IMG/VR virus record: IMGVR_UViG_2534682157_000008
Location: 1-38,017 of that record
DNA: 38,017 nt
From: a virus
Taxonomy: Duplodnaviria; Heunggongvirae; Uroviricota; Caudoviricetes
Strand: one strand, 5' to 3'
Made by a program: the position numbers. Positions 27,001-30,000 of this stretch are shown here, one piece after another (position 1 is the first letter of the stretch; the number at the start of each line of letters is the position of its first letter).

Positions 27001-30000
27001 TATTGGTAAGCCCGAAGAACTGGATACTTCGGCACGTAATGCCGGGGCTCTAACCCGCCGCCGCGAAATTCGTGATGCTGCAACTCTGCTACGTCTGGGG
27101 CTGGCTTACGGCCCCGGGGGGATGTCATTACGTGAAGTCACTGCATGGGCTCAGCTCCATGACGTTGCAACATTATCTGACGTGGCTCTCCTGAAGCGGC
27201 TGCGGAATGCCGCCGACTGGTTTGGCATACTTGCCGCACAAACACTTGCTGTACGCGCCGCAGTTACGGGTTGTACAAGCGGAAAGAGATTGCGTCTTGT
27301 CGATGGAACAGCAATCAGTGCGCCCGGGGGCGGCAGCGCTGAATGGCGACTACATATGGGATATGATCCTCATACCTGTCAGTTCACTGATTTTGAGCTA
27401 ACCGACAGCAGAGACGCTGAACGGCTGGACCGATTTGCGCAAACGGCAGACGAGATACGCATTGCTGACCGGGGATTCGGTTCGCGTCCCGAATGTATCC
27501 GCTCACTTGCTTTTGGAGAAGCTGATTATATCGTCCGGGTTCACTGGCGAGGATTGCGCTGGTTAACTGCAGAAGGAATGCGCTTTGACATGATGGGTTT
27601 TCTGCGCGGGCTGGATTGCGGTAAGAACGGTGAAACCACTGTAATGATAGGCAATTCAGGTAATAAAAAAGCCGGAGCTCCCTTTCCGGCACGTCTCATT
27701 GCCGTATCACTTCCTCCCGAAAAAGCATTAATCAGTAAAACCCGACTGCTCAGCGAGAATCGTCGAAAAGGACGAGTAGTTCAGGCGGAAACGCTGGAAG
27801 CAGCGGGCCATGTGCTATTGCTAACATCATTACCGGAAGATGAATATTCAGCAGAGCAAGTGGCTGATTGTTACCGTCTGCGATGGCAAATTGAACTGGC
27901 TTTTAAGCGGCTCAAAAGTTTGCTGCACCTGGATGCTTTGCGTGCAAAGGAACCTGAACTCGCGAAAGCGTGGATATTTGCTAATCTACTCGCCGCATTT
28001 TTAATTGACGACATAATCCAGCCATCGCTGGATTTCCCCCCCAGAAGTGCCGGATCCGAAAAGAAGAACTAACTCGTTGTGGAGAATAACAAAAATGGTC
28101 ATCTGGAGCTTACAGTGGCCATTCGTGGGACAGTATCCCTGACAGCCTACAAAACGCAATTGAAGAACGCGAGGCATCGTCTTAACGAGGCACCGAGGCG
28201 TCGCATTCTTCAGATGGTTCAACCCTTAAGTTAGCGCTTATGGGATTCTCCCCCGCCTGGTCTCTTACTCCTCAGGTTCGTAAGCTGTGAAGACAGCGAC
28301 CTCCGTCTGGCCGGTTCGGATTCGTACCTCGCAGAGGTCTTTCCTCGTTACCAGTGCCGTCACTATGACGGTTAAACAGATGACGATCAGGGCGATTAGC
28401 ATCGCCTTTTGCTGCTTCATAGCCTGCTTCTCCTTGCCTTTCGGCACGTAAGAGGCTAACCTACGTGTGTAGAGCATAGATATGGCCTCAGATTAATGTT
28501 AAGCGTCTTGCCGGACGCGTAATGTTAACTGGGGCTTTTCTCTATCTGCCTTTTGGTGTTCATGCCTGAGACAGATAGCCTCAAGCACCCGCAGTCATTC
28601 TACCCGTTTTAGATTTCTCAGCCAACTTTATGCTCACAACATATACAAATTTCCCGGTTAAAGCTCATCATGTTAGATAGTTTTTGCGTACGCACTATTT
28701 TTTTATGTAAACTGCGCAAAAAAGTTTAGCACCCTAAATTGTTAAGGGAAAGTTAAGGAAGTGTTAATGCTTGAGCAAACAGTAAAAAACATCAATTCAC
28801 GCTTTGGCTGGCGCAACACCCGTAAGCTTCTTGGTTCATCACTGGGTGTAACGGCCCAAGGATTACCCCTTTTTATTGAACGTGTAAATAGTGTAGTTCA
28901 GCATAATCCCGACCTAAAAGACAGAATCGACGATTTCTGGAAAGGTTTAATTTTTAGCGGGAATCGATTACTTTCTATTTATAGAATCACCGATGAAGAC
29001 GTAGCAAAATTACAAACAATTTTCACAAATCAGAAAAAGGACAATAGCCCCTTCTCAGAAAAATACCCAACTCCTTTATCCAGAGAGGAGCTGTTAGTTG
29101 CTGATACTGAGCTGCATTTTGCTGAACTACGTCAAGATATCATTCGTGATAAACAAATTGACACTGCTGTTTTTTTATCCAAAGCGTATTACACTGAAGT
29201 GATAGAGCTTGACCCAACACATCTTAGCGATGCGGGTATGGAATTACGTGCTAATGGTGGAGAAATAAAATGCAAAACACGCCAAGTCACGCAATGCTTT
29301 AATACCATCATGCTAATGCCTGCAGAAAAATATTAATTCTTACGATTGATTTATCTATCCTTCCAAGAAGTGAATCACAGCCTCAACAATACCTTGTGGC
29401 TAAATTTATAAAAAAAGAAGCTGGCGTTATTTTAAACAATCCTCTTGAATTATTTGGTTCAATACAAGATCTTTACGAAAAAGTAGATGGCAGAATTTCT
29501 CATGTATCTTTTATCACCTCAGATGGCAATACAAGTTCTTTAAAACTCAAACCAAGTCAAAAGTGTTTGCGTCAAGATGTTTACCATCATAGTGGAGAGT
29601 CCGCAAGCCCAATATTGACAAAGTTTAAGTTGGGAAAAATTTGGGATTTACCACAAAGTTCTTCACATATTTTATCAGTAGAGTTAATATTACCAGGAAA
29701 AAGGACAATGCTTGATAATCCTAGAATTAGGTTGCATGAAGCAATTGCGAAGAACTGTAACAACATTGATTCGATTATATTTATTGTTGAAAAAATATTG
29801 GATTCTGTTAAGTCCTGTGAAGAGAAAAGAAGAGCGAGATCATCAGGCCATAAATGAAAAAGAGTATATATCACGACATTATCACGCAAATAGAGCAGGA
29901 TTTTAATGATCCTGTTCGCAGTGTGTGTCGTGATCTTTTTCTTTTTCTGGTTAGTAAAGATGCTAAAAATATCAATCACTTTACATACAAAACCCTTATC

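Follow-up and report, generated by a model that had tools for sequence, protein, structure and literature searches.

The Caudoviricetes sequence of IMG/VR record IMGVR_UViG_2534682157_000008 (positions 1 to 38,017; the whole stretch of 38,017 nucleotides [nt] is called the window here) carries two adjoining open reading frames (ORFs), genes A and B, that meet at a run of five adenines (A5). The question raised by this locus is whether A and B are two genes, a single gene that is broken in the genome, or an intact gene split by an error of the assembly. Judged from alleles and homologues, A and B are the 5' and 3' parts of a single prophage gene for a 363-residue protein, the first gene of a three-gene module. 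With a probability of roughly 0.86, we conclude that this single gene was broken by a real, inherited −1 frameshift and not by an assembly indel.

The ORF list places gene A at 28761 (GTG) or 28767 (ATG) to 29336 and gene B at 29396 (GTG) to 29857. The ATG of gene A is preceded by a good Shine-Dalgarno sequence (AAGGAAG). At the break, the zero frame reads ATG CTA ATG CCT GCA GAA AAA TAT TAA, with the A5 run at 29326 to 29330 and the stop codon of gene A at 29334 to 29336. The frame of B is bounded by a TAA at 29300 to 29302 and is open from 29303 to 29857, overlapping the end of gene A as had been predicted. Its first canonical start is the GTG at 29396, with no earlier ATG, GTG, or TTG, and no Shine-Dalgarno-like sequence was found within the 20 nt upstream of that codon (cacagcctcaacaatacctt). 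The ORF list and the inspection of these 20 nt thus agreed with the original prediction that gene B has neither an ATG nor a ribosome-binding site. A scan for promoters and terminators around A and B gave background-level signals, with no plus-strand promoter-like site upstream of B. Adding one A to the run fused A and B, again as predicted, into a single ORF of 363 codons with no internal stop, whose product was 100% identical (0 differences) to the RefSeq protein WP_000893387.1. The 31 stop-free codons ahead of the first start of B are only mildly unusual by chance at 36% GC; the weight of the observation comes from homology and not from ORF geometry.

The cassette was found in 14 complete Escherichia coli genomes (at least 99.3% identity), and the run length seen in the window occurred in 0 of the 14. 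A run of six adenines (A6) was present in 6/6 aligned complete genomes, including E2348/69, 2013C-3181, N51, JB2, and RM9154-C1, and RefSeq annotates one 1,092-nt coding sequence (WP_000893387.1 or WP_000893384.1) in E2348/69, 2013C-3181, and RM9154-C1. Residues 1 to 348 of the intact protein aligned to positions 1 to 352 of the 352-position profile phrog_12777 (E = 3e-147); the window copy of this family has its frame interrupted by the −1 frameshift and the stop at 29334 to 29336. Among 5.8 billion proteins searched, 32 homologues were recovered, nearly all of 359 to 366 amino acids (aa) with a query coverage of 96 to 100%, from Salmonella, Kosakonia, Cronobacter, Klebsiella, Pantoea, Erwinia, Enterobacter, Yersinia, and other genera. 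All full-length homologues recovered were single in-frame proteins of 351 to 366 aa. Together with the 363-aa ORF of the A6 relatives, these homologues bear out the suggestion of one gene of about 360 aa: A and B were fused throughout the homologous cassettes, and no two-protein homologue with a real start for B was encountered. In deposited phage genomes, tblastn gave only a weak, partial match in an Acinetobacter phage (25% identity over 48% of the query).

The break lies within one of the best-conserved stretches of the alignment (QCFNTIM..P....L..T.DLS.LPRSES). The invariant residues D195, S197, P200, and Q207 are placed between the break and the GTG of B, and a B product started at 29396 would miss all four. 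Homologues from Shewanella baltica and Vibrio parahaemolyticus (32% identity) aligned without gaps over residues 182 to 200. In an AlphaFold (AF2) model, the intact protein was predicted to form one compact fold (predicted local distance difference test [pLDDT], 82.9; predicted template modeling score, 0.81), and the break falls between the strands E168-184 and E189-195, where the pLDDT is about 97. No other 19-residue segment of the intact protein is as hydrophobic as the one at the break.

The broken allele was recovered well beyond the window. The 189-aa product of gene A (ending ...PAEKY) was indexed in 171 blocks of the public collection, and the exact protein was found on 84 contigs (NCBI, ENA, Logan, and UniRef) in several accession series, among them EGW93183.1, EIH26719.1, and ENT7482506.1. 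The exact 153-aa product of gene B was found on 51 public contigs. When 11 draft assemblies (L017 to L024 and L026 to L028) were aligned to the window, A5 at 29326 to 29330 was present in 11/11. These drafts had the longer run at every covered site of a second set of deletions that are private to the window (25757, 26823, 30895, 31268, 34167, and 37033, plus 20291 in L023). Over 18.6 kb, the closest relative, L023 (GCA_047883975.1), and the window were separated by 2 substitutions and the seven window-private one-base deletions; L019 (GCA_005040705.1) differed from the window over 6.6 kb by 0 substitutions and only three of these deletions. Since the nearest relatives have A5 and yet do not have the private deletions of the window, parsimony indicates that the window inherited A5.

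The private deletions confirm that, as originally noted, the window has other homopolymer-associated frame breaks; these look like artifacts, unlike A5. Compared with 2013C-3181 from 23.5 to 38.0 kb, the window had 5 substitutions and seven one-base deletions, all in A/T runs, and at each of those seven sites it was one base shorter than every alignable relative. The private one-base deletions are those at 20291 (T7>T6), 25757 (T7>T6), 26823 (A6>A5), 30895 (A7>A6), 31268 (T6>T5), 34167 (T8>T7), and 37033 (A7>A6). They were not found in any close relative, including sister assemblies at 0 to 2 substitutions, and five of the seven break otherwise intact genes (DUF968, the 3' end of gene D, the Q-family antiterminator, the Cro-like gene, and DUF1482). 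The DUF968, Q-family antiterminator, Cro-like, and DUF1482 genes are intact in the A5 sister assemblies and broken in the window. By reference run length, and counting only the six window-private deletions within 23.5 to 38.0 kb, the window was shortened in 0/197 A/T runs of 4 to 5 nt, 2/25 runs of 6 nt, 3/10 runs of 7 nt, and 1/1 run of 8 nt; no deletion was found in G/C runs in the same comparison. The seven private deletions are probably due to homopolymer under-calling in an unpolished long-read assembly. Systematic homopolymer errors in long-read assemblies are a well-documented error class (e.g., PMC8011154).

At the population level, the intact 363-aa protein was found on at least 1,000 contigs, and close variants were found on 62 and 31 more. 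All A5 carriers have the insertion element IS421 beside hokD and are near-identical to each other, a pattern that, on the sequences compared, is consistent with a single origin in one lineage. Because 2013C-3181 and N51 have IS421 together with A6, the A was lost after the insertion of the element. Downstream of the break, the frame in A5 genomes still matches the intact allele save for single rare substitutions, and the inactivation is thus recent. A run of seven adenines (A7) was found at the equivalent position on a single contig (L025 9425-9432; GCA_042439845.1), where the frame is shifted by +1 and the product is a fragment of 194 aa; this allele could be either a genuine singleton or an error. 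That contig has a different prophage background, with IS421 not present and a different Q. With A5 in only one near-identical IS421-positive clade, A6 elsewhere, and A7 in one assembly, one or two rare events would suffice to explain the distribution of lengths of a tract of only 5 to 7 nt. The same gene is disrupted in other ways: the T of the ATG start is deleted in N51 (L002 3069; window 28768), one G is deleted in JB2 (L003 ~3240; window 28939), and 130 public contigs have an annotated 206-aa product from the downstream part of the gene. A sizeable minority of carriers have a disrupted first gene, in some cases perhaps through errors of assembly.

IS421 itself sits between a small hypothetical gene and hokD. 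A run of seven cytosines at 28036 to 28042 is intact in the window; 2013C-3181 has six there, with an annotated frameshift.

Two alternatives to a real, inherited frameshift were weighed. One is an indel of the assembly or of base calling, in which the real genome would have A6 and an intact 363-aa gene, and A5 would be one more under-called homopolymer. This was our initial working hypothesis, which was dropped when the exact broken allele was found in independent assemblies. It draws on the excess of deletions over substitutions between the window and its closest relative (seven against only 2) and on the nature of the private deletions, all of which lie in A/T runs of at least 6 nt and increase in rate with run length, so that A6>A5 belongs to the same class. 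However, an artifact of this kind should be an indel private to the window, as the seven other deletions are, and A5 is common to all of the nearest relatives, which keep the longer runs at the seven sites; the 189-aa protein, moreover, comes from several sources and accession series. We consider an under-call at A5 quite improbable, and of the two possibilities that the original prediction left side by side, the broken gene stands and the assembly indel is unlikely. Some points do weigh against the frameshift as a real, inactivating mutation: the window holds seven other one-base deletions of the same type in A/T runs; A5 was judged from assembled contigs, irrespective of their sequencing platform; and the loss of function is deduced from a structural model and from conservation.

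The other alternative is that the break is functional, either because A and B are separate products, because of a −1 ribosomal or transcriptional slip, or because the run is a phase-variable switch. A −1 slip of tRNA-Lys on A-AAA-A is conceivable in principle and would be in the direction needed, but no canonical slippery heptamer (X XXY YYZ) was found in the zero frame (GCA GAA AAA TAT TAA), and the frameshift is not conserved, the homologues being overwhelmingly single in-frame ORFs. Switching might be suspected from the three natural run lengths and from the independent truncations in N51, in JB2, and in the records with the 206-aa product, with genes C and D remaining intact in the A5 lineage. 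However, a run of 5 to 6 nt is short for phase variation or transcriptional slippage, A7 is known from a single contig only, and the A5 carriers look clonal, which points to one event and not to repeated switching. Separate translation of B is opposed by the lack of any start codon or Shine-Dalgarno sequence that would retain the conserved residues 190 to 210, and the break divides a buried β-hairpin. Explanations of this type appear very unlikely to us.

For the real, inherited frameshift, the most likely course of events would begin with replication slippage that cut A6 to A5 at 29326 to 29330. Translation would then read one wrong codon and stop at 29334 to 29336 after residue 188, and the remaining 175 codons would stay open in the −1 frame but without a usable start signal. 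The mutation would have arisen once in the IS421-marked prophage lineage and been passed to many isolates. The break separates two buried β-strands where the fold is predicted with the highest confidence, so that it is almost certain that the product does not function. Ribosomes would end at 29336, about 520 nt ahead of gene C, so that translational coupling into C would be lost, and the stoichiometry of the module would probably be disturbed too (the Shine-Dalgarno sequence of C is weak and that of D is good). Genes C and D are intact in the A5 lineage, and the loss is therefore tolerated. The break is ordinary in kind, one more pseudogene made by homopolymer slippage, recent and fixed in one lineage of Shiga toxin-producing E. 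coli. The features of the locus and the occurrences of the module in other genera are given in Table 1.

TABLE 1 Positions of the frameshifted gene, its neighbors in the window, and the module in other genera
Feature	Position	Strand	Basis or context
Whole pseudogene, cassette gene 1 (363 aa intact; WP_000893387.1 family, phrog_12777; RdgC-like fold)	28767..29857	+	
Gene A, 5' fragment (residues 1-188, one out-of-frame Tyr, and TAA)	28767..29336	+	Sequence, ORF list, public contigs
−1 frameshift site, A5 run (A6 in intact alleles, A7 in one assembly)	29326..29330	+	Alignments
Gene B frame, 3' fragment (last 176 codons are residues 188-363 of the intact protein)	29303..29857	+	
Gene C, 142 aa, acidic, without a transmembrane segment (phrog_11490)	29854..30282	+	ORF list, profile match
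Gene D, PD-(D/E)xK (BamHI-like) nuclease, 213 aa intact	30275..30922	+	
IS421 (IS4-like) transposase, marks the prophage lineage of A5	26954..28072	+	ORF list, relatives' annotation
hokD toxin gene, upstream boundary of the cargo site	28265..28420	-	Relatives' annotation, ORF list
Q-family antiterminator gene (173 aa in relatives)	30912..31444	-	
Module, Salmonella	L011 6001-8159		Prophages, between holin genes and Q
Module, Yersinia	L014 6001-8144		Prophage, beside a giant MuF/LPD protein
Module, Vibrio parahaemolyticus	L029 2484-4675		Adjoins rpoD
Module, Shewanella baltica	L031 2487-4630		Adjoins a resolvase gene

The module to which the broken gene belongs consists of three translationally coupled plus-strand genes, on the strand opposite to the phage genes, and forms a block of 36.4% GC in a window of 51.1% GC overall. 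The stop codon of gene 1 overlaps the start of C (ATGA), and the end of C overlaps by 8 nt the start of D, which has its own GGAG. Protein C contains 23 D+E and 10 K+R residues and no hydrophobic segment, and its gene is kept beside gene 1 in Salmonella, Yersinia, Vibrio, and Shewanella. Protein D has the αβββαβ restriction-endonuclease-like core and the D...(D/E)xK motif of the PD-(D/E)xK nucleases, and its last residues are altered in the window by the private A7>A6 deletion at 30896 to 30901. RefSeq gives D a length of 197 aa (start at L001 4625); the upstream ATG at 30275 is supported by homologues of 209 to 224 aa and by the PHROG profile, whose 215 positions were matched from the 17th onward only. 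The gene order recurs elsewhere with proteins of 351 to 366, 140 to 151, and 209 to 224 aa, all three of which are homologous across contexts. Synteny of the module extends over Enterobacterales, Vibrionales, and Alteromonadales, down to 32% identity, in prophage and nonprophage contexts.

The product of gene 1 has an RdgC-type fold. Neither this protein nor any of 27 homologues had a Pfam match to RdgC (PF04381), a sequence search of the PDB with the gene 1 protein matched no chain, and profile searches of the PDB with two alignments (A1 and A2) returned nothing meaningful. Scans of the three module proteins against Pfam, NCBIfam, and PADLOC gave sub-threshold noise only; in PADLOC-DB v2, there was no match for gene 1 or C and only a weak one for D (PDC-S54, E = 0.0014). 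A literature search found no paper for the RefSeq accessions, and a search for "RdgC-like" gave nothing relevant.

The presence of a Shiga toxin 2 (Stx2) operon identifies the window as a Stx2-converting lambdoid prophage. The operon lies at 20403 to 21638 on the minus strand (stxB, 20403 to 20666; stxA, 20679 to 21638), downstream of two tRNA-Arg genes and a tRNA gene with a CAT anticodon (21730 to 21981), and the best match of the late region was to a prophage annotated as Stx2b (strain 2018-166). The Q-family antiterminator gene, on the far side of the module, is split in the window by the private T6>T5 deletion at 31269 to 31273. Farther along, at 33148 to 33162, the window and L021 differ in length by 15 bp in frame (GGGTCAACCGTTGAG, a near-direct repeat) within a helix-turn-helix gene of the replication region, the product of which measures 320 aa in most relatives, as against 315 aa in L021.

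In the O26:H11 strain FWSEC0001 (L009 2645-4280, equivalent to ~28700 to 31450 of the window), other cargo is found between hokD and the conserved early gene WP_001002672. One product, annotated as a "beta family protein," resembles PADLOC model PD-Lambda-2_C (E = 1e-40), and another, annotated as "sce7726," resembles cll of gop-beta-cll (E = 2e-28). The occurrence of different defense-model genes at the same site therefore marks it as a variable hotspot for defense cargo. Because of these defense genes, the syntenic conservation in different mobile contexts, the low GC content, and the opposite strand, the module may be an undescribed and widely mobile defense or exclusion system of Gammaproteobacteria, in which a costly gene 1 would be recurrently knocked out in E. 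coli (by A5, A7, loss of the start codon, or 5' frameshifts) with A6 as the preferred breaking point; we put this forward tentatively and hold it to be possible but, on balance, doubtful.

Annotations would do better to join A and B in a single pseudogene entry, marked as frameshifted, in place of two hypothetical proteins; public records now give them as two proteins (e.g., EGW93183.1 and its neighbor). The window holds, side by side, one homopolymer frameshift that we take to be true and seven that are probably false, which run length cannot separate and sister assemblies can. Homology-based polishing against A6 genomes would wrongly repair A5 and rightly fix its seven neighbors. In the A5 lineage, the first gene of the module is already knocked out by nature, which is of use for testing a role in defense. 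The potential for novelty lies only in the uncharacterized combination of an RdgC fold with a PD-(D/E)xK nuclease, a candidate defense system in Shiga toxin prophages.

Among known loci, the counterparts of the broken gene are those encoding the "hypothetical protein" WP_000893387.1 or WP_000893384.1 in enteropathogenic E. coli E2348/69 and in O145 strain RM9154-C1, which occupy the same site between hokD and the Q-family antiterminator and are followed by the same genes C and D as in the window. Compared with the intact WP_000893387.1, the window copy has A5 instead of A6, giving annotated fragments of 189 and 153 aa. The gene 1 protein differs from RdgC (2OWL) and from phage RdgC-like proteins, with high root mean square deviations, template modeling scores of 0.3 to 0.4, and another arrangement of domains. 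RdgC is, moreover, encoded by a housekeeping gene, whereas gene 1 belongs to a mobile module of three genes, one of them for a nuclease.

In being a prophage-borne accessory element expressed from the lysogen, the module is like λ RexA/RexB, and RexA has been reported to belong to the broad RdgC/Iml3/Chl4 fold class (PMC11077077), the same class as gene 1. Membership in RexAB itself was rejected: a membrane partner was not found (maximum KD19, 0.57 for C and −0.03 for D), and RexA was not among the top structural matches. For the nuclease, the nearest known counterparts are the type II restriction enzymes of the BamHI, BglII, BstYI, and OkrAI group and the PD-(D/E)xK defense effectors McrC, Hachiman HamA, and NucC. 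Unlike the BamHI/BglII/BstYI/OkrAI group, the module has no cognate methyltransferase, and gene D has no Pfam or NCBIfam match. The module is plausibly an anti-phage or exclusion system that would combine an RdgC-like DNA-binding component with a nuclease effector.

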